This document shows positions 2,493-62,455 of a DNA stretch of 64,000 nt, piece after piece. Below the pieces are notes generated by a model. It searched no databases and was not told where the DNA came from. It saw nothing but the letters and a program-made list of their open reading frames with translations. The first letter of the stretch is position 1. Every line of letters starts with the position of its first letter. The translations under genes and the position numbers were made by a program. Origin of the DNA: Candidatus Bathyarchaeia archaeon (GTDB lineage Archaea > Thermoproteota > Bathyarchaeia > 40CM-2-53-6); the NCBI GenBank assembly GCA_049513715.1, contig JBEKVV010000002.1, forward strand, positions 64,001-128,000, given 5' to 3'.

Positions 2493-2708
2493 ATGAACGA
2501 AGAAGGAAAGAAATACCTCAAACAAACGCTCCCAGGATTAGTCGGCGCGATCCTCCTTGTTTACGGAGGACTCAGCCTGGCAACAATCTACTGGTCAACT
2601 GAAGCCTACCAAACAGCCACGCAAACTAACATCTACTCAGCAGCAATCGCCGCAGTAATCGGCGTAATACTAGTACTCGTCTGGCTAGCCACTGGAAAGC
2701 GAAAGTAA
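2493..2708 (+). CDS. Small two-TM membrane protein in the ECF operon
   Basis: GGAGG RBS, two hydrophobic helices, operon position. Confidence 0.7.
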   Translation: MNEEGKKYLKQTLPGLVGAILLVYGGLSLATIYWSTEAYQTATQTNIYSAAIAAVIGVILVLVWLATGKRK

Positions 2709-2726
2709 CAACCCTAAGACAAAAAA

Positions 2727-4460
2727 ATGAGTTGGCGCCCGTCAGTGGAGGAGGATTACATCAAAATCTCGAACCTCTCGTTCACGTATCCCGACGGGAC
2801 CCTGGCACTGAAGAACATCAACCTGGCCATCAAAAAGGGCGAGTACGTAGTCATCATGGGTCAAAACGGTGCAGGAAAAACAACCCTTTCCCTTTTTTTG
2901 AATGGAACTATACCGAACATAACCGGAGGCACAGTCGAGGGAACGGTTACCTCAGCGGGCCTGAACCCCTTTGAAAGGCCCGTTTATGAAATGGCACAGA
3001 AGGTCGGCGTAGTACTACAAGATCCTGAAGCCCAACTAATCTGCTCAGACGTCAAAGCGGAAGTGGCATTCGCAGCAGAGAACTTGGGCCTACCTCGTGA
3101 AGAAATCGAGAAACGCATTCAATGGGCAAACAAGATTGTCCGTCTTGACGGAATGGAGGACAGAAGCCCACAGCAGCTGTCCGGAGGACAGAAGCAGCGG
3201 CTAGCCATCGCAGCCAACTTGGTCATGCAACCCGAAGTCATCGTTTTGGACGAGCCCACCTCGCAGCTGGACCCCGTCGGAACAACTGAAGTTTTCTCGG
3301 TTCTGAAGGACCTCAACGAGAAACACAACATGACCGTGGTTATGGCTGAACACAAGAGTGAGGCCGCTGCTGAATTCGCCGACAGAATCGTGGTGTTAAA
3401 CAATGGCGAGATTGTTGCGGACGGCGAGCCGCATGAAGTTTTCGGGAATGTAGACATGCTCAAGAAAGTGTACGTTAAGGTTCCAGATGTCACGATGCTC
3501 GCTTGGAAAATGAAAGAGAAGATGCCGACCGGAAAGTATCCCATCACAATACCTGAAGCGCACAGTGTGATCGACGGGATAGCTCAGAAGGTGAACGTGA
3601 GCAGAACTACTTTTCCGGTCGAGATAGCATCGAGGTCATCCGTAGCGAAGCCCATCGTGGAGGTTGAAGACTTCCATTTCTCATATCCCCAAGCTGCGAC
3701 AGAGGCCTTGGCAGGCGTCAACGCGGCCATTTACGACGGCGAGTTCGTGGCTCTCATCGGACAGAATGGTTCCGGAAAGACAACCTTGGTGAAATGCCTG
3801 CTTGGCATTCTGCGGTCAAAGAAAGGCCGGATAGTCGTTGATGGTAATGATATCAAAGGCACGCGGCCGGGAGAGCTTGCTAAGAAGATAGGGCTCGTGC
3901 TGCAGAACCCCGACACTCAACTCTTTCAGATGTCGGTTAAGGAAGAAATTGAGTTCGGGCTGCGTAACATCGGCGTGCCTGAGAGCGAAATCGAACCACG
4001 AATCGACGAAGCCATAAAGGCTACAGGCCTCGAGGCTTGGAGGGACATTTACCCATTCAGGTTGAGTTTCGGGGACCGGCGCAAAGTGGCTGTCGCCGCA
4101 ATCATAGCCATGAAACCCCGGATACTGATTTTTGATGAACCAACAACTGGGCAGGATTTCCGCGGTAGGTATGAACTTGCCGAGATAGCTAAGCAACTAA
4201 ACGAATCGGGCTCAACTGTGATAATGATTACACATGACATGGACCTCGTGGCCAGGTATGCCAAACGGACCATCGTCATGGGCTTAGGAAAGATAATCGC
4301 AGAGGGACCAACACGTGAGATCTTTAAACAAACTAAGCTCTTAGAACAGACTTTCCTCCGCCCGCCACAGATCACTCAATTATCAAACGAGATCGGCGTC
4401 CCAGCCATGTCCGGTTCCCTCACAGTAGATGAACTCTATTCGAATCTGACAAAGGGGTGA
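2727..4460 (+). CDS. ECF transporter ATPase, fused tandem A-A' domains
   Basis: Two Walker A motifs (GQNGAGKTT, GQNGSGKTT), Q-loops QDP/QNP, LSGGQ signature, DEPT Walker B. Confidence 0.93.
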   Translation: MSWRPSVEEDYIKISNLSFTYPDGTLALKNINLAIKKGEYVVIMGQNGAGKTTLSLFLNGTIPNITGGTVEGTVTSAGLNPFERPVYEMAQKVGVVLQDPEAQLICSDVKAEVAFAAENLGLPREEIEKRIQWANKIVRLDGMEDRSPQQLSGGQKQRLAIAANLVMQPEVIVLDEPTSQLDPVGTTEVFSVLKDLNEKHNMTVVMAEHKSEAAAEFADRIVVLNNGEIVADGEPHEVFGNVDMLKKVYVKVPDVTMLAWKMKEKMPTGKYPITIPEAHSVIDGIAQKVNVSRTTFPVEIASRSSVAKPIVEVEDFHFSYPQAATEALAGVNAAIYDGEFVALIGQNGSGKTTLVKCLLGILRSKKGRIVVDGNDIKGTRPGELAKKIGLVLQNPDTQLFQMSVKEEIEFGLRNIGVPESEIEPRIDEAIKATGLEAWRDIYPFRLSFGDRRKVAVAAIIAMKPRILIFDEPTTGQDFRGRYELAEIAKQLNESGSTVIMITHDMDLVARYAKRTIVMGLGKIIAEGPTREIFKQTKLLEQTFLRPPQITQLSNEIGVPAMSGSLTVDELYSNLTKG

Positions 4461-4466
4461 AAAGAA

Positions 4467-5270
4467 ATGGCGATGATAGAATACATAAAGAAAGACACAA
4501 TTGTACACGGCCTGAACCCCATAACGAAGATCTTCCTGTTAGTAGCCTTCTGGGCCGTCGCGCTAGTCATGTTTGACTTGGTATCTGTCATACTGATAGT
4601 CATCGTGTCTGTGGTACTTTGGCGTCTCTCGGGGATCCCGCTCTCAGTGTTAAGGAAGGTATTCGTTCTGCTGTCTGTCGTATTCGTTGTCTACATTCTC
4701 GTTAACGGTTTCATGTATTTCAGAGGAAAGACTCCGATCTTCTTCGTTCTCGGCCATCCGTTCACGTGGGAAGGGCTAATCTTCGGTATTACAATAAGCC
4801 TCAAAGTCCTGGCGGTTGTGTGTCTCGTGCCAGTTCTAACCATGACAACTCCCATGTCGAAGTTGATGGCGGCGATGGCAAAGATGAAGGTACCATACAA
4901 GTTCGTTTTCACTTTCGCAATGGCGATCAGGCTTACGCCTCTGATCGACCAGGTGTATCATGAAATAATCGAGGCGCAGAAACTGCGTGGCCACGACGTC
5001 GATTCGATGGGCTTGATTAAGAAGATTCGGAAGGGGTACCTGCCAATCTTCGTTCCACTAATCCTGACTTTGCTCAGGCGTTCATCTGACATGGATGTGG
5101 CGATTGAATCCCGTGCCTTCGGTGCTCCGGTGAAGCGAACGTACGTGGAAGAGATGGGATTTCATGCTTGGGACTTTGTTTTCATGGGGGTGACCGTCAT
5201 TATCGCCGGCTCCATCCTAACTTACTCGTTCCTATACGGAAGTCTCACACTCGGTGTGTTGCCGGTATGA
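4467..5270 (+). CDS. ecfT: ECF transporter transmembrane T component
   Basis: LNPITK N-terminus, AQKLRG and AIESRAF conserved Arg motifs. Confidence 0.92.
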   Translation: MAMIEYIKKDTIVHGLNPITKIFLLVAFWAVALVMFDLVSVILIVIVSVVLWRLSGIPLSVLRKVFVLLSVVFVVYILVNGFMYFRGKTPIFFVLGHPFTWEGLIFGITISLKVLAVVCLVPVLTMTTPMSKLMAAMAKMKVPYKFVFTFAMAIRLTPLIDQVYHEIIEAQKLRGHDVDSMGLIKKIRKGYLPIFVPLILTLLRRSSDMDVAIESRAFGAPVKRTYVEEMGFHAWDFVFMGVTVIIAGSILTYSFLYGSLTLGVLPV

Positions 5271-8312: not shown

Positions 8313-9000
8313 CTATTTCGTTATACCCACGTGCTCTCTGACTTTCCGCACTAGCACCGAGTATCGTGGGTCGGTTCTTGCCTGGGCGAAGAGTGGTGAG
8401 TGCATCAGGAATAAGGGGACTAGTGCATGGGTTTCAATGACCTTGTACATAAGTTCGAAGAAGGAGTCGAGGTCTCCGAGGGCGTAATAGACGTAGGCGA
8501 TGTAGTTGAAGGAGATCGGTCCCATTTTCGCGTCCTCAATCCTCTTTATCATGAGCAGCGCCGTCTCCCTGTCGCCTTCCCTAGCTGCAATGACTCCTCT
8601 CACCCACATGACCCAGGGACGAGTGGGCTCAAGCTTCTCCGCCTTCGCATGAAACTCCTTAGCTTTCTCGATGTCGCCCTTGGTTAGGTAGTAATCCGTC
8701 ATGCCCCTGTAAACCTCTGCTGGGGCTAGTTGCTCGGTCTTCTTCCAGTGTTCTAGTGCCTCCTGATGCCTGCCCGTAAAGAGGTATGTTTCTCCAACAA
8801 GCCAGATGTAGTGGGGTCTCAGTGGGTCTAAGCGGTAGGCTGTCTCTATTTGCTTAACCATCTCTCCTTCGTTCCCTCTGAGTGCAGCCAGTTCGAACAA
8901 ACAACGGTATGGTTCGGTGAGACTCGGGTTAAGCTCCAACGCCTTTCTTGCCTCCGCCTCTGCACCCGGCATGTCGTCCATATCGAAGAGCAATCCCGAG
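8313..9000 (-). pseudogene. C-terminal TPR fragment of the IS-interrupted KaiC-like/TolB-like/TPR gene
   Basis: TPR repeats (AEAEARKALELNPS, AYRLDPL); joins 11749-13174 in frame when the IS and one TSD copy are removed. Confidence 0.88.
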
Positions 9001-9060
9001 GGTAACGTCACTTCTGCGTTTGGTGAAAGCATCTCGTAGCTGTGTAACAATTCGTTTGGT

Positions 9061-9546
9061 TCAGTAGCGTCTTTCGTAGCGAGAAAGTTTAATCTTCGCC
9101 TTGGCTGGCCTGAGAATTGTGCGTTGTATGCGTTCCCTGAAAGTTATGTCAAATTTCAAGAAGACTGAATCCCGACCCAGTACAGTATACGGTATAGCCT
9201 CTGGATTGACTGGGACGAAGACAGGCATGTCTGCGAAAGTTGCTATATTATTTCCCGCTTTCAAGACCTCGATGGTGAGGTTGAAAATCACTGTGTCGAA
9301 CCCGCCGCCTGCACCTATAGATGGTGTTGCCTTTTTGGGGTCTATTTGGAGACCTAAGATTTCTGCTAGGTCTGTTGGGACGAATGTATTGGTCGCTCCT
9401 GAATCAACAAGACCTAAAGTTGTTAGACTTGCTGTTGCTGTCCTAAGTCTGACATGGAGAAGCGGAACCCTAAACGCTCGCTTAAGCAGGGGATGATAAT
9501 ATGAAAGATAACGATTTACTACAGCACCTTTGAAAAGAGAGGACAA
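9061..9546 (-). CDS. Retropepsin-like (clan AA) aspartyl protease, IS passenger
   Basis: GLVDSGATNTFVP catalytic motif and LGRD motif. Confidence 0.85.
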   Translation of the reverse strand: MSSLFKGAVVNRYLSYYHPLLKRAFRVPLLHVRLRTATASLTTLGLVDSGATNTFVPTDLAEILGLQIDPKKATPSIGAGGGFDTVIFNLTIEVLKAGNNIATFADMPVFVPVNPEAIPYTVLGRDSVFLKFDITFRERIQRTILRPAKAKIKLSRYERRY

Positions 9547-9552
9547 GTTAGG

Positions 9553-9747
9553 TTACAGCAGCATTACGGTGTCGGACGGAATTTTCATAACGAATGGCTC
9601 CTTGTCTGGATACCTTCGTTTGGCTTCCGCGAACACTTCTTTTCCGCTGTCACCAGATGCAACAAGTTCCTTGCCAACGAGCGCAATCCATTTGCCTACA
9701 TACTCGCGTAGATCGCCCATTGACATTAGGTAGTTCAAATAGTCCAT
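9553..9747 (-). CDS. DUF5678-like small protein, IS passenger
   Basis: YVGKWIALVG.ELVASG...EVFAEAKRRYP pattern; directly upstream of the aspartyl protease. Confidence 0.75.
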   Translation of the reverse strand: MDYLNYLMSMGDLREYVGKWIALVGKELVASGDSGKEVFAEAKRRYPDKEPFVMKIPSDTVMLL

Positions 9748-9817
9748 TTTTCTCTACTCCTGAAAAATAACAACTGTACATTTAACCCTGTTGTTCGCCT
9801 ATCCAATGTTACAGTCG

Positions 9818-10015
9818 TTAATCCTCTTTCCTTCTAACAGTTTTAGACGGGTCGGCGCTAATCCAGAGAACAATGGCTTCCTCGACAGCTTCCGAGATGT
9901 TGCCTTTTTTCATGCCTTTACGCTTGAAAACCTCTTCTTTGAACCGCTTTTCTCTGTCTGCTGGCAAATACACATCTATTCGAGATTTGCCTTTTGGGAC
10001 GCTTGGAGACACCAT
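9818..10015 (-). CDS. Small ribbon-helix-helix-like DNA-binding protein, divergent from the transposase
   Basis: RIDVYLP strand followed by KKGNISEAVEEAI helix. Confidence 0.6.
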   Translation of the reverse strand: MVSPSVPKGKSRIDVYLPADREKRFKEEVFKRKGMKKGNISEAVEEAIVLWISADPSKTVRRKED

Positions 10016-10123
10016 CTAGCCCTCAGAAAGCATATAGACACATTACCACTTATAACCTTTACCCCCTTACCACCAGCTTTATCTAGGAAAGAGGCGTATA
10101 GGTGTTTAAGTGGTAAACCACCA

Positions 10124-11248
10124 ATGCAAGTCCTCAGAACTCGTGAAGAAAGGGGCCGAATAATTGCCGAAAAGTCTAACCAAATTGTTCGATTGGATGA
10201 ACGGTTCTACCGTGTAACTTCTCAGTCTGGCAATGGAATGTATGATGTGACCAAGCGCAAGGTCGGTGGATGGTTATGTACTTGCCCCGACTTCGAGTTT
10301 CGTAACGTTCAATGTAAGCACGTTTGGGCTGTCCAATTCAGCCTAGCCGTAAGGAAAGAGGTCGAGGCTAGAGTCATTGAGCCAATAACAGACATACACG
10401 CTTGCCTATTCTGCAAATCCGAGAACATAATTCGCTGGGGCTTACGCCACAACAAGTACGGCGACATTCAGAAATTCTCCTGCAAATCATGTGGCAAATT
10501 CTTCACGATCAATCTAGGCTTTGAGAAGATGAAGCACAGCCCTCAAGCGATAACGACAGCCATGCAACTATACTTCTCAGGCGAAAGTCTACGGAATACG
10601 GCTAGATCGCTACGCTTGATTGGAGCGCAAGTGAGCCATCAGACAATCTACAGGTGGATAGCCAAGTACACGACATTGATGGAGAAATATCTGGACAAGA
10701 TTACGCCTCAAGTCTCGGACACTTGGGCCACAGACGAATTATTTCTGAAGATTAAGGGGAACATGAAGTATCTCTACGCTATGATGGATGAGCAAACACG
10801 GTTTTGGATAGCTCAAGAGGTTGCGGATACGAAATACACGGCTGACGTTCGACCACTATTCCAACTCGCCAAGCAAATCGCAGGCAAGCAACCAAAGACG
10901 CTCGTCTCTGACGGTGCGGCCAATTTCCATGAAGCATACCTGAAAGAGTTCCGCACAGCCAAACTTGAGAACAGAACCGAACACATACGACACATCAGAC
11001 TAGCAGGAGATTACAACAATAACAAGATGGAGCGCATGAACGGGGAAATCAGAGACCGAGAAAAAGTGATGCGGGGCTTAGAAATCAAAGACAGCCCAAT
11101 ACTCAAGGGCGTACAAATCTACCATAACTTTGTGAAGCCGCACATGGCACTAGACAACAGAACACCCGCTCAAGCAGCGGGAATAGAAGTCAAGGGCAAA
11201 GACAAATGGCTAACAATCATACAGAACGCTAGTCAAGAGAAAACCTAA
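10124..11248 (+). CDS. IS6-type DDE transposase with N-terminal SWIM Zn finger and Zn ribbon
   Basis: CTCPDF..CKH (SWIM), CLFC/CKSC ribbon, HTH, WATDE, VSDG and NNKMERMNG DDE motifs; ATG 10124 preferred over the ORF-track start 9791. Confidence 0.92.
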   Translation: MQVLRTREERGRIIAEKSNQIVRLDERFYRVTSQSGNGMYDVTKRKVGGWLCTCPDFEFRNVQCKHVWAVQFSLAVRKEVEARVIEPITDIHACLFCKSENIIRWGLRHNKYGDIQKFSCKSCGKFFTINLGFEKMKHSPQAITTAMQLYFSGESLRNTARSLRLIGAQVSHQTIYRWIAKYTTLMEKYLDKITPQVSDTWATDELFLKIKGNMKYLYAMMDEQTRFWIAQEVADTKYTADVRPLFQLAKQIAGKQPKTLVSDGAANFHEAYLKEFRTAKLENRTEHIRHIRLAGDYNNNKMERMNGEIRDREKVMRGLEIKDSPILKGVQIYHNFVKPHMALDNRTPAQAAGIEVKGKDKWLTIIQNASQEKT

Positions 11249-11279
11249 TCCCAGTTCTCGATAAACTTAGGAAGTCTTG

Positions 11280-11513
11280 TCAAGTCTTGTTCGGCGACTT
11301 GAGGAGAGCTATCCAGTCAAGCGCCCTCTTCTTCACCTCACCAACCGAGGCTTTTTCACCGATTTCGATTAACGCAGGTATAGCAGTTACACCAAATGCG
11401 GCGACAGCGTTAACTGCTGATACTCTAGCTTCATAATCTGCCCATTTCGCATACGTAGGCATAGATTGTAGAGCTACCCCCTTCAGTCTATCTATCTGCT
11501 CCTTCTCTGACAA
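11280..11513 (-). CDS. Small HEAT-repeat-like hypothetical protein, IS passenger
   Basis: ARVSAVNAVAAFGVTAIPALIE HEAT-like motif; GAGG RBS. Confidence 0.5.
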   Translation of the reverse strand: MSEKEQIDRLKGVALQSMPTYAKWADYEARVSAVNAVAAFGVTAIPALIEIGEKASVGEVKKRALDWIALLKSPNKT

Positions 11514-11748
11514 TGCTGAGCACTTCCTCTATCCCTTTTCTATATGGATGATTCATGTACCATGCCAGAAAAGCCTTTGCGTCATTTCCATCCATTTTGA
11601 GTATGATCTCGAAGAAGCCAAGCTCGTTCCGTAGATGCCTCGTCACACGCCATCTTAACCACCGATTTACAAACGCTCTACGCCACCGACCAAACGGTTT
11701 GTTACAGCCCAAAAAAATCGGTCTACCAAACTAAGACGTTACGTTACC

Positions 11749-13174
11749 ATCCCGAGAGACATGAGTGAGCCTCGGGCAAGTCGGGGTCCAGGTTGATGGC
11801 ACGATCTAGCGGTGCCTTCGCATTTGAGAGGGAACCACCGTAAGAATCCTGTCCGGATTCGGCAAGGGCCAGGTGACACTCGGCTATACCCACATACGCC
11901 CTCGCGAACTCGGAGTCCAACTCGATGGCCTTCTCGAAGAGACTTATAGCCTGCCTAAGAGAATCCTTAGTCTCCTCCCTGAAAAGTTCCCGGCCCCGCA
12001 GAAAGAATGTGTACGCTTCAGTGTTCTCGGTAGGTTTCTTCTCCAGAGTTCTCTTCTCGGAGTCCACCAGACGAACCCTGAGCTCCTCTGCCACCTTCTC
12101 AGCTATCTCCGATTGTATGGCGAAAACATCCTCCAGCTGCCTATCATAGTTCTGAGCCCACAGATGCTTATCACCTGCCACATCGATAAGCTGGGCAGTG
12201 ATCCGTATCCTATTTCCCGCTTTCCTGAAACTGCCCTCAAGAATGGAACCCACGTCCAGTTCTCTACCGATCTCGCCTAGTTTCTTCGCGGTCCCCTTGT
12301 ATCCCATTACTGATGTTCTCGAGATGACACTAAGACCACTAATCCCTGACACAATGGAGATGATCTCCTCAGTTATGCCATCCGCGAAATACTGGTCGTT
12401 TGTGTCCGGGCTCATGTTAGCGAATGGCAGGACTGCGATTCGAGTCTTCTCAAGCTCTGACTTGCTCACGCTCCTCTTCTCAGCTACGAGTCCCTCCAGC
12501 GGGAATTCTCTCTGGGACATTTCTACTCCATGAGCCCACTTGATACGGAAGAACTTCCGTTGTCGTCCCTCGACATCTCTCTCGAAGATTTCTATGCTCG
12601 CATCGAACACGTCCTCCAACGCCTGCGTCTCCTCGGCCGTGTGCATGTACGGATTGAGAACTGCGAGGGTTGTGATACCCCTTCCACGGAGTCGTTCCAA
12701 GAGTTCGTTGAGCCATTTCCTCGTTTGAAGCGCCTTATGCCTCAGCAATACGTCCGAGAGAATATCCAAGCCGAGGCGTTTCGGGTGGGTGGCGCCTAAG
12801 GCTTCGTTGATTTGAAGGTTCAAGTCGGTGAGGTTCTCGATTCCCTTACCGGGCAGGATGCCCTTTGCGGGTGAGACGGGTTTGTCGCTGCAAATCAGAC
12901 ATGCCGTGCCTTCAGCCGCATCTGGCACGATCACTTGGGCGAAGGAGAGGTTACGGCATATCAGTAAGCTAGGCTGCTCGCTCTTCAGGAACTTACCCAG
13001 CAGAATTGGCACCTCGTCGCCTGCTGGAGCGTTCAGCACAACCATGGAACCAGAAAGGAACCCCCCGTGTAGAGCCTCGTCCAGTCTACCGTAACCAGTT
13101 GAAACCTTCGTCCGAATAGAACTGACCGAGGCGCCTTCGGAGGTCACGTTAATTCGCGCACAATCACTCCCCAC
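11749..13174 (-). pseudogene. N-terminal part of an interrupted gene: degenerate KaiC/RecA-like domain, TolB-like domain and TPR (start may be 13147)
   Basis: VSTGYGRLDEALHGG KaiC-like start; RIAVLPFANMS..YFADGITEEII TolB-like motif; ends at the TSD. Confidence 0.88.
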
Positions 13175-59522: not shown

Positions 59523-59738
59523 TTCAAGTCAACTGCCACATTATCTAGCATATGCAATGTAAGAGGATTGTTCTGAAACTCACCTGTCAGAGAAGAATGA
59601 AACTATGCCCCAACGCAGGAACAGTGGGAAAGCCTGGATGTCGAAAGAGGGGTCAACCAGTGTGTGGCCAACTCTCCCTTGATTTGTTCTACGCGCGCTC
59701 CCCAAAACGTAAAAAGCAGTTAACAATCAGCCTGCATT

Positions 59739-60032
59739 ATGGGAATTTGTCGAGCGTGTCAAACTGTCTTAGACGAAGGTGACCGGTTCTGCCGAGTTTG
59801 TGGAAACAATGTTTCAGGGTCGCAAGGCTTTCCCTATAGCCATCCAGCGCTCTATTGTAATCCTGAATTTATAGCTCAACTAGCCCTCACAGTTGCTAGT
59901 GCTGCTAGTGGAACAATTGCCGGGAACGCATGGTCGAATTGGCGGTCAAGAGCATACTGTGCTAGTTGTGGGATATGGTTTCCAAAGTCGGAGCGGTTTT
60001 GCGATCGATGCGGCGCACGTCTCCAAAGCTAG
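59739..60032 (+). CDS. Double zinc-ribbon protein
   Basis: CRAC..FCRVCG and CASCG..FCDRCG. Confidence 0.7.
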   Translation: MGICRACQTVLDEGDRFCRVCGNNVSGSQGFPYSHPALYCNPEFIAQLALTVASAASGTIAGNAWSNWRSRAYCASCGIWFPKSERFCDRCGARLQS

Positions 60033-60175
60033 AACATCACGCTACTAGATTCTTCCGCTTCTAGTCCTACTTGAGGTACTCGCGCGGCGGTAACGTCAAC
60101 TCTTCGGTTGCTAAGGAAAAAAATCTCCGCTTGTAAAAAGTCGGTTGTTGTGGTAACTACCCAGTTGTTAGAAAA

Positions 60176-60688
60176 TTATTGAGTCCTCGAATCCAGAATA
60201 TTTTTCAATTTGTCGCGAGCTTCGGGGGGAATCTTTGCCTTTTGTACCGCTTGATGTTTGACGTAGTACACTGGGTCACCATTCATATCATATTTGCTAG
60301 TTCGTGAAACCATCGTGACGACTAATTTCACGCCTAAGATAACTCCCTCTGACGATTTGTATTCGTTCCACTCTTCTTTGACTGTATCGAACGGTATATC
60401 TTCAGCAACTACGGAGTTGGCGATTTCCTGAATTGGGTAAGACTGGGTGTCTTTCGCACCTTTGAGTTCCTTCGGCACGGAAGTGGTCAAGATGATATTT
60501 GCCCCCGCTCCAAAGCGGGCATTTCCCTCTGAATCGAGTCCTTCAAGGAAGAATTTCAACAAGATTAGCTTGACTTTGAGCGCGACATCGACCGTATCCT
60601 TGATTGTGTATATACTCCAACCCTCTTTGACAGTATCAAAGTTCAACTCGACTGCGCTAGGGTCGGGTACAGTGGGCTCCAATGTCAT
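60176..60688 (-). CDS. Tandem-duplicated-domain hypothetical protein (cassette cargo)
   Basis: FDTVKEGWSIY..VKLIL..DSEGNARF repeated as FDTVKEEWNEY..VKLVV..DMNGDPVY. Confidence 0.75.
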   Translation of the reverse strand: MTLEPTVPDPSAVELNFDTVKEGWSIYTIKDTVDVALKVKLILLKFFLEGLDSEGNARFGAGANIILTTSVPKELKGAKDTQSYPIQEIANSVVAEDIPFDTVKEEWNEYKSSEGVILGVKLVVTMVSRTSKYDMNGDPVYYVKHQAVQKAKIPPEARDKLKNILDSRTQ

Positions 60689-60788
60689 TCTCTCTGAGAC
60701 GGTTAATGAGGCAACTATTTAAGAAATCGACCATATGTTCGTCTTCTAGGTCATTTTCATATCTCAGATATTCACTCATGACGAGGTT

Positions 60789-61469
60789 GTGCCATTGACA
60801 ACATCCAATTTCGATATTCAAGGCTACGAACTCGTAGGCTCGCAGGTGCTCTACGTTCATGGTCTTGTGTTCCCGATACAATCAGGTTCGATTACCGGAA
60901 CTAGTTCCAAGGCTCAAACAATCATCGTGAACACATCTGGGTTCTCAAATGATCTTCGCGTTTACCCTGTGCCTCACATGGGAACGTCTCATATTGTCTA
61001 TACAGATCAAATAGTGCAGGTCGGAACCCCTCAAGAATGGCACTCAGTTAGTCTTTTAGATCGCCCATCTAGATTCTGGAACTGTTCGATTGAATCATTC
61101 ATTTTTCCATTAGCTGATACAAGCAGAAGTTGGAATGCGATTCGTTTGCCTGCTCGACTAGCAGATTACTCAGATGCGCAAGCTGTCGCATGGTTCGCTT
61201 CTGAATCCGAACTAATTGACTCTGTGAGTAACCTGTGTAATGCCGTTGATTCTGAACTTAGAACAAGAAAGCTTAGATTTTCCAATTCGATAACGACATT
61301 TTCCGACCCTGAAGAAGATGATGATAACTCGCTTATTGTTGAGTATAAGATTGCCAACAAGCATTATGACGAAGTTATCAAGATTTGGAATGCAATCTCG
61401 CTTAAGGTACTGACGGGTTTACCGGAAAATGTACTCGACAAGGTCACTTTGACGATGGAAGACGAATAG
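60789..61469 (+). CDS. Hypothetical protein, putative partner of the HEPN gene (cassette cargo)
   Basis: GAGG RBS; stop is 1 nt before the HEPN start; acidic C-terminal domain. Confidence 0.65.
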   Translation: MPLTTSNFDIQGYELVGSQVLYVHGLVFPIQSGSITGTSSKAQTIIVNTSGFSNDLRVYPVPHMGTSHIVYTDQIVQVGTPQEWHSVSLLDRPSRFWNCSIESFIFPLADTSRSWNAIRLPARLADYSDAQAVAWFASESELIDSVSNLCNAVDSELRTRKLRFSNSITTFSDPEEDDDNSLIVEYKIANKHYDEVIKIWNAISLKVLTGLPENVLDKVTLTMEDE

Positions 61470-61470
61470 A

Positions 61471-61842
61471 TTGTTTGCACCTAGCGACTTTCTTGCCTAT
61501 GCTAAATCAATCCCCATTACAGATGAGAAAAGTGCTCGGACTTGCATAGGCCGTGCCTACTACGCAGCTCATCTTTCCGCTAGAGAAAAAGTTCGGTCAC
61601 GCTATCCGAATCTATTTCAGCCTTTTCGCGGGTGCAGTAATGAGCACTCTGTAGTAAGAAACAAGTTAGCAAGGGATTTGAAGAGACCCGACATCACTCA
61701 GAACCTCAGACAATTAGTGCGAAAAAGAGTTCGGGCAGACTACGACATACGAAATTACATCTCCTCCAACCATTTCACAAATGAGGCAACTAGAGCAATC
61801 ATCCTCTGTGATACAATCCTAAAATCTCTCAGCACTGTTTGA
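61471..61842 (+). CDS. HEPN domain protein (cassette cargo)
   Basis: RTCIGRAYYAAH, central H and LVRKRVRADY motifs. Confidence 0.8.
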   Translation: MFAPSDFLAYAKSIPITDEKSARTCIGRAYYAAHLSAREKVRSRYPNLFQPFRGCSNEHSVVRNKLARDLKRPDITQNLRQLVRKRVRADYDIRNYISSNHFTNEATRAIILCDTILKSLSTV

Positions 61843-61974
61843 TTCTCCTCACTAGCGGCTCGACCCACTTCACGTATTCTTGTTCTTCTCGTTAATTGCG
61901 AGTTCCTTCAGAATCCCAAATCAGATTCGCAACCCTTCCTAGCAACCGACAAGTTGACGTTACCCGCGCGGCGG

Positions 61975-62208: not shown

Positions 62209-62455
62209 TGGAGAATCCTCGTGACAGCATCTAGCTTCAACGGAACAATCGTTCCGCCCATTTGAAGTTCATACCAAAGGTTACAGCGAAGGCAATGTAG
62301 TAACGGAAAACCGTCTTGGCCGAGTAAATCCACGTCGCAATTGGGACATTTCATTTTGAATCACGGGCCAATCGTTCTCGTAGTTGCGACTTAAGCGGGG
62401 AACCTGACTGAAACTCAACGGTCAGAGAAGAATGAAACTGAAGTCAGGATATTGT

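Follow-up and report, generated by a model that had tools for sequence, protein, structure and literature searches.

The window analysed here, a 64,000-nt stretch of a bathyarchaeial contig, raises the question of how three genes, none of them a transposase, came to lie between the ends of an insertion sequence, and what those genes do there. We consider it fairly probable that the locus is a transposase-less cassette with IS6 ends that arose through loss of the transposase, and that two of its genes, orfB and orfC (B and C below), form a toxin-antitoxin pair in which OrfB would block a HEPN protein by predicted binding.

The cassette occupies positions 60089-61964 of the window (1,876 bp) and carries three ORFs between 25-bp inverted ends (Table 1). 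The initial annotation had described these ends as near-perfect, of IS6 type and bordered by an exact 8-bp duplication, and on all three points it was right: the ends differ only at positions 14 and 15 (23/25 identical), both open with GGTAACGT, and the duplication CGCGCGGC is the same at both borders. About 2e-9 such pairs of ends and duplications would be expected by chance per 64-kb window on a uniform-base estimate. The IS6 features present are the GG-tipped terminal inverted repeats and the 8-bp target duplication; the cTGTt motif of the family is absent from the cassette ends and ACGTC stands in its place. ACGTC is also found in transposase-bearing elements that have the cassette's end, and CTGT in other sub-lineages. 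The first 24 bases of the right end, which has no inner repeat, recur as one end of a transposase-bearing IS6 element (L022) and of MITEs in another genome (G012). GC content contrasts weakly between the cassette (0.41-0.46) and its flanks (about 0.45-0.51).

Table 1. Features of the cassette, and an intact IS6 element in the same window (positions are those of the window).
Feature	Position	Strand	Basis and remarks
Intact passenger-carrying IS6 element	9001..11748	+	DDE_Tnp_IS240 and SWIM; 36/50 end bases as in the cassette
Target site duplication, left copy, 8 bp	60081..60088	.	Exact match to right copy
Left terminal inverted repeat, 25 bp, GG tip	60089..60113	+	23/25 against right end
Inner repeat of end core, L021/L022/L082-type	60131..60147	+	End sequences; likely second transposase site
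10-bp relic of L052-type inner repeat	60150..60159	+	26 bp from last base of orfA in the cassette and L052 alike
orfA, 170 aa, two-repeat protein of unnamed archaeal family	60176..60688	-	Repeats; 60% identical to L052 copy
Conserved AT-rich box between divergent orfA and orfB	60712..60731	.	Same 20 bases in L052; L054 and L056 have a similar box
orfB, 226 aa, conserved DPE acidic loop, predicted antitoxin	60789..61469	+	Alignment, model
orfC, 123 aa, HEPN fold of AF0298/HEPN-T type; R86-x3-D90-Y91, H59	61471..61842	+	Alignment, model
Right terminal inverted repeat, without inner repeat	61940..61964	-	End sequences
Target site duplication, right copy, 8 bp	61965..61972	.	Exact match to left copy

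Two small zinc-binding ORFs (59739-60032 and 62208-61975) converge on the insertion site, and neither is broken by it. The latter (minus strand) is a small CxxCxGxG zinc-finger ORF that ends 2 bp from the duplication and has a paralogue at G000:C1:9821-10048, G000 being the genome under study. A 32-bp direct repeat (94% identity; window positions 59573-59604 and 62408-62439) stands around a 2.8-kb segment with the cassette inside it; a third copy is found at G000:C1:490820, and the repeat is possibly a recombination or regulatory site. A TATA-like hexamer stands 6 bases from the duplication at 10 of 32 insertion sites, seven of which are not independent because they share one flank; none is present at the cassette's own site.

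A six-frame search of the cassette with a profile of 21 family transposases found no remnant of a transposase (best E 0.36), tblastn gave E values of 0.14 and 4.1 at best, and the DDE domain (PF13610) that parent-type elements possess is absent. The same profile and tblastn searches rule out orfB as a decayed transposase. The count of three cargo genes without a transposase, made in the initial annotation, is borne out by the ORFs as well as by both searches. Two findings had been named there as speaking against a mobile cassette: a decayed transposase inside it, which we looked for and did not find, and relatives with these genes in place but without IS6 ends, whereas the related genes elsewhere also lie within IS6 elements. 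The cassette is an IS6 derivative and not an IS, and its movement would depend on a transposase from another element. In the text of PMC6199540 available to us, a mobile insertion cassette (MIC) is defined by IS-type ends around passenger genes, the lack of a transposase and a length of 0.7-3 kb; the locus fits this definition and is a real IS6-derived MIC.

A metagenome scan with the OrfC alignment yielded 26 loci, one of which (L051) is the cassette itself. Another, L052, is a 4,006-bp element with fully matching inverted ends (25/25) and an exact 8-bp duplication, in which A (minus strand), B (plus) and C (plus) keep the order that they have in the cassette and are followed by an intact IS6 transposase. 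Identity between the cassette and L052 is 60% for A, 36% for B and 65% for C. Because the same A-B-C layout stands beside an intact transposase in L052, we read the cassette as a MIC derived from a large, passenger-carrying archaeal IS6 family. Among the six closest other C loci (L052-L057), B lies upstream in five, a divergent A is present in three and a convergent IS6 transposase in three, with two contigs ending too early; among the 19 more distant C loci, B is present at L071 only. L044 combines a transposase fragment and DUF3467 with B, C, A and an IS6-like end, and B-C pairs with no IS6 transposase found nearby occur at L045, L055, L071 and L206.

The ends of the cassette are best matched by three transposase-bearing elements, L022 (45/50 bases), L021 and L082 (43/50 each); the intact IS6 elements of this genome share 33-36/50 end bases with it, as against 43-45/50 for elements of sister genomes. 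In a quick-mode tree the transposases of L022, L021 and L082 form one clade with no intact transposase of this genome inside it. The L052 transposase is 36-40% identical to these three, and the three distinct intact transposases of this genome are 61-66% identical to the L022-type clade. Read inwards, the left end of the cassette consists of the L022-type outer and inner repeats followed by a 10-bp motif of the L052-type inner repeat, a 10-mer that occurs twice in the 2.79-Mb genome. As this relic of L052 type lies in register inside an end of L022 type, the sequence suggests, by a 10-bp match in one comparison, that the cassette's ends were swapped between IS6 sub-lineages. End-to-end stacks with one shared duplication are common in the IS6 family studied and may offer a route for such a swap. 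Stacks of two to four IS6 units, with one 8-bp duplication and next to a TATA-like box, lie at L077:5794-16101, L082:5480-11117 and L026:1942-5467.

We propose that the ancestor would have been an L052-like element with A, B, C and a transposase; that the cargo would have gained the ends of a second IS6 sub-lineage, probably via end-to-end stacking, and lost its transposase; and that a transposase of the second sub-lineage, acting in trans, would have inserted the resulting cassette between the two convergent small genes.

In the genome (2.79 Mb in 11 contigs), four IS6 elements are intact; their ends are related, their 8-bp duplications exact, and their transposases have SWIM and DDE_Tnp_IS240 domains. 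Two of the four are identical over 2,748 bp and have different duplications, so the family has been active recently. One of this pair lies in the window (Table 1) and the other, with another 8-bp duplication, at G000:C2:146968-149715; the copy in the window is a possible, non-cognate source of transposase for the cassette. This copy apparently interrupts a gene for a large ATPase/TPR protein (ORFs 11744-13174 and 8313-9050), and its passengers include DUF5678 and an aspartyl-protease-like gene. Five other transposase-less units (364-3,338 bp) with exact 8-bp duplications are present in the genome, which also retains solo ends of similar type and transposase fragments. At G000:C3:181500-181572, a solo end like that of the cassette, inner repeat included, stands directly beside an 836-bp unit that has no transposase and whose ends are of another type. 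Inverted pairs that start with GGCATTGT and have no 8-bp duplications (G000:C2:464598-474685 and C1:883100-886684) possibly belong to another element family.

Beyond this genome, the cassette's end pattern occurs in 10 of 22 other genomes of the genus, in none of 36 from the family's other genera, and is absent from the viral contigs searched. G012 has 16 matches to the pattern; those fetched include four MITEs of 185-186 bp with exact duplications and three more with 1-2 mismatches. MITEs that carry this end type indicate that such ends move without a transposase of their own. The 185-186-bp MITEs at L013, L017, L029, L031 and L034 (G012) combine the cassette's end type with an internal palindrome. 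Of the 77 transposase loci from named genomes, 44 possess ends together with an exact 8-bp duplication and measure 1,983-5,720 bp, in a set in which several entries repeat elements already counted and passengers were read in some only.

Two further claims of the initial annotation, that the cassette was recently inserted and that it moved in trans, found no support for this copy. The cassette is single-copy in the assembly; seven of eight Logan runs (which may be the genome's own source) have a single contig across it, and the joint of an empty site was found in none of the eight, whose contigs drop rare variants. An empty site, proposed as a check on the claimed insertion, was not found across the junction in 40 related genomes, nor with each flank searched separately in the 22 genus genomes. 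The proposed search for paired ends with 8-bp duplications succeeded in relatives, where it recovered MITEs and elements, and in this genome left the cassette as a single copy. The assembly contains no intact transposase of the cassette's own end type, those present belonging to the other end types compared above.

Deletion in place is a real rival: a complete A-B-C IS6 element would have inserted at this site and lost its transposase there, leaving a stranded relic that never moved as a cassette. We give this account a substantial minority chance. It would agree with a cassette that is single-copy and apparently fixed in a genome without an intact cognate transposase, and with a right end made of the outer repeat alone, as a deletion would leave. 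Against it, the 122 bp that follow orfC hold no transposase remnant, ends without an inner repeat are those of the multi-copy MITEs in G012, and units with clean duplications but no transposase are frequent in this genome.

OrfA, OrfB and OrfC have no significant match in Pfam, NCBIfam or PADLOC (no PADLOC match better than E 0.017), and PDB sequence searches with the OrfA and OrfC alignments returned nothing significant. OrfC was nevertheless rightly called a HEPN protein in the initial annotation, by fold and not by Pfam, where the protein itself has no match. Weak matches to PF05168 appear in five of nine OrfC family members (best E 0.031), and the homologue in L045 passes the PF05168 cut-off; the only match in PHROGs is phrog_5176 (E 3e-12), whose function is unknown to that database. 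The OrfC model (pLDDT 90) has HEPN folds as its top six structural matches (VIA; Z 12.4-10.3), led by AF0298 (2hsb; Z 12.4, rmsd 3.2 over 111 residues) and including the sacsin HEPN domain (11.8); the best unrelated row has Z 9.9, and 12.4 is below the tool's caution line of ~13 for helical bundles. HEPN proteins are also the top matches in Foldseek, with an E value of just 0.038. These results support a HEPN fold of AF0298 type for OrfC. The Rx4-6H RNase motif is absent from OrfC; R86-x3-D90-Y91 is found in all nine homologues, and the upstream H59 in eight of nine, with Q in the other. In the sections of PMC3710099 at hand, an upstream His is proposed as an alternative active site of AF0298-like HEPN-T proteins, and H59 sits at that place. 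By these residues OrfC fits both AF0298-like HEPN-T and class II HEPN.

One base separates orfB from orfC, which agrees with the earlier description of a HEPN gene coupled to a 226-aa gene, and B-C gaps are 1-4 bases in all six loci measured. A full-library search with OrfB gave 22 matches including itself, and a 20-row alignment after exclusion of two repetitive long proteins. In the OrfB model, residues 1-111 have pLDDT <50 and residues 112-226, an alpha/beta domain, about 90 or more; the N-terminus is predicted to be disordered and the C-terminal domain folded. Fold matches of this small domain are weak (Z at most 6.3) and divide between KH/RimP-like and nucleotidyltransferase folds, with RimP/KH-like rows tying with Rel, CdnB and MNT 1ylq (Z 5.1). 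Foldseek, suggested earlier as a check on the cargo, recovered HEPN matches for OrfC; the OsmC/Ohr identity it offered for OrfB (E 6e-4, TM 0.22) was rejected as a partial common fold. The MNT catalytic motif GSX10DXD is absent from OrfB and from 19 of 20 family rows, so adenylylation is unlikely.

Modelled together with two copies of OrfC, OrfB(105-226) reaches a complex score of 0.79, as against 0.09 for the best of three controls. A score of 0.79 is reached by 116 of 157 solved complexes and by 2 of 215 mismatched pairs, a calibration that the B-C job, with its own alignments and three chains, does not resemble, and the score may reflect likeness to solved HEPN-MNT complexes. The runs agree in at least 84% of contacts, with partner pLDDT of at least 83. 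The predicted interface includes the invariant OrfB residues E175, Y193 and W200 and OrfC residues 54-60 and 91, and its best-defined contacts join OrfB 193-205 and 220-221 to OrfC 72-81 and 108-119. The acidic loop of OrfB (171-181) may pair with OrfC 54-60, both appearing in the list of interface residues. OrfB is predicted by these models to bind OrfC, and orfB-orfC is likely a toxin-antitoxin module, as had been proposed, with putative toxicity and rescue. OrfC would act on RNA as a HEPN dimer via H59 and R86, and OrfB would neutralise it by binding and not by adenylylation; loss or decay of OrfB would free OrfC, by which retention of the cassette would be favoured or an infection aborted.

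It is somewhat unlikely, in our judgement, that the cargo is non-toxic, with OrfC a non-catalytic HEPN and B-C either a neutral passenger or a complex that binds RNA or has a regulatory role. OrfC lacks the RX4H motif and one of nine homologues has Q in place of H59; class II HEPNs were without biochemical tests as of the portion of PMC7641770 consulted, and some HEPN families are predicted to be inactive in the corresponding part of PMC3710099. The position of H59 at the proposed alternative active-site His, the order of antitoxin then toxin with tight coupling, and the occurrence of the A family after HicB-HicA pairs as well all argue instead for a toxin.

OrfA proved to be the tandem-domain protein that the initial annotation had reported, its halves being 29% identical over 66 aa (pairwise E 2e-5). 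ESM Atlas returned unnamed clusters only for OrfA and OrfB, and OrfA reaches TM of at most 0.31 to named rows, with no known fold. Of 400 other genomes in the phylum, 38 contain relatives of OrfA; across the 29 OrfA-family loci read, single-repeat forms lie mostly among housekeeping genes and two-repeat forms often in mobile settings. Two-repeat A genes directly follow HicB-HicA in L203 and in L159, the latter inside an IS6 element, and another follows a HicB-like gene in L191. The L159 element (2549-5171), from a Nitrososphaerota genome, carries a HicB-like gene, HicA and the A-family gene by its end. Single-repeat A genes (~80-110 aa; L175-L203) occur widely across the phylum and encode a conserved archaeal protein without a name; those searched against Pfam fell into no family. 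OrfA would be an accessory of toxin-antitoxin operons. The AT-rich box between orfA and orfB is, from its sequence, likely an archaeal TATA promoter; a sigma-70 promoter scan, a model ill-suited to an archaeon, remained at chance level. We consider it very improbable that A-B-C works for the benefit of its own element, for example by adjusting transposition or keeping the element stable: A adjoins an IS6 end in the cassette, L052, L044 and L159, and toxin-antitoxin pairs of Tn3 transposons have reportedly been proposed to play such roles, but a scan of 117 other loci gave no match to B or C and one to A, so that the module is not integral to the IS6 family, and the four B-C pairs listed above have no IS6 transposase found nearby.

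A bolder form of the preferred toxin-antitoxin reading, which we regard as improbable in its entirety, would make A-B-C a toxin system of archaea with three parts and no earlier description: OrfC as a class II HEPN RNase acting via the alternative His, OrfB as a non-enzymatic antitoxin whose acidic loop covers the active site and whose disordered tail is the trigger, and the tandem OrfA as a chaperone or sensor common to HicBA operons, the module hopping between IS6 sub-lineages by end swaps. If this were true, these IS6 elements would provide archaea with a modular means of gene delivery.

MICs, tIS and HEPN pairs all belong to kinds already known. In the open literature searched, we found no description of this archaeal IS6 family or of the A-B-C module, nor of the IS6/archaeal MIC setting, the end swap or the OrfB family. 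The locus points to an archaeal branch of IS6 with cargo, a cassette and miniature derivatives, overlooked by transposase-based annotation, in a family whose IS6/IS26 elements are otherwise known as short and single-gene. The cassette and L052 provide a matched pair for the study of cargo capture and re-housing, and the B-C pair a small test of whether RX4H-less class II HEPNs are toxins and of how they are neutralised without an adenylylating partner.

The closest structural parallel to the cassette is MIC231 of Bacillus cereus s.l. (IS231 group, IS4 family), which, in the text of PMC6199540 available to us, likewise has two inverted repeats, no transposase, passenger genes, a length of 0.7-3 kb and a related autonomous IS in the lineage; the cassette differs in its IS6-type ends, 8-bp duplication and archaeal host, and its trans-mobilisation is putative. 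The parent elements resemble IS6/IS26, as set out in parts of the family review (PMC7986276), in their GG tips, 8-bp duplication and DDE_Tnp_IS240 transposase, and many relatives have cTGTt, whereas the cassette's own end has ACGTC. Those parts of the review give the family a length of 789-880 bp and a single passenger-carrying member, the tIS ISDsp3; compared with the members reviewed there, the long zinc-finger clades h and i included, the elements described here measure 2-5.7 kb, encode a SWIM-finger transposase of ~370-390 aa, and have two-part ends, MICs and MITEs. OrfC shares with HEPN-T/AF0298 (2hsb), as covered by the sections of PMC3710099 at hand, a D where the motif has His, together with another conserved His on the upstream side; it is unlike AF0298 in its 14% identity, in falling below Pfam detection and in a partner that is not a canonical MNT. 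The B-C pair itself is most like class II HEPN/MNT (PF05168/PF01909) and the type VII HepT/MntA system as presented in the consulted portion of PMC7641770: a small alpha/beta gene lies directly upstream of the HEPN gene, the Tyr is conserved and a complex is predicted for B and C. It departs from HepT/MntA in that OrfB has a long disordered N-terminus and no GSX10DXD, OrfC has no RX4HXY, and a third gene travels with the pair.
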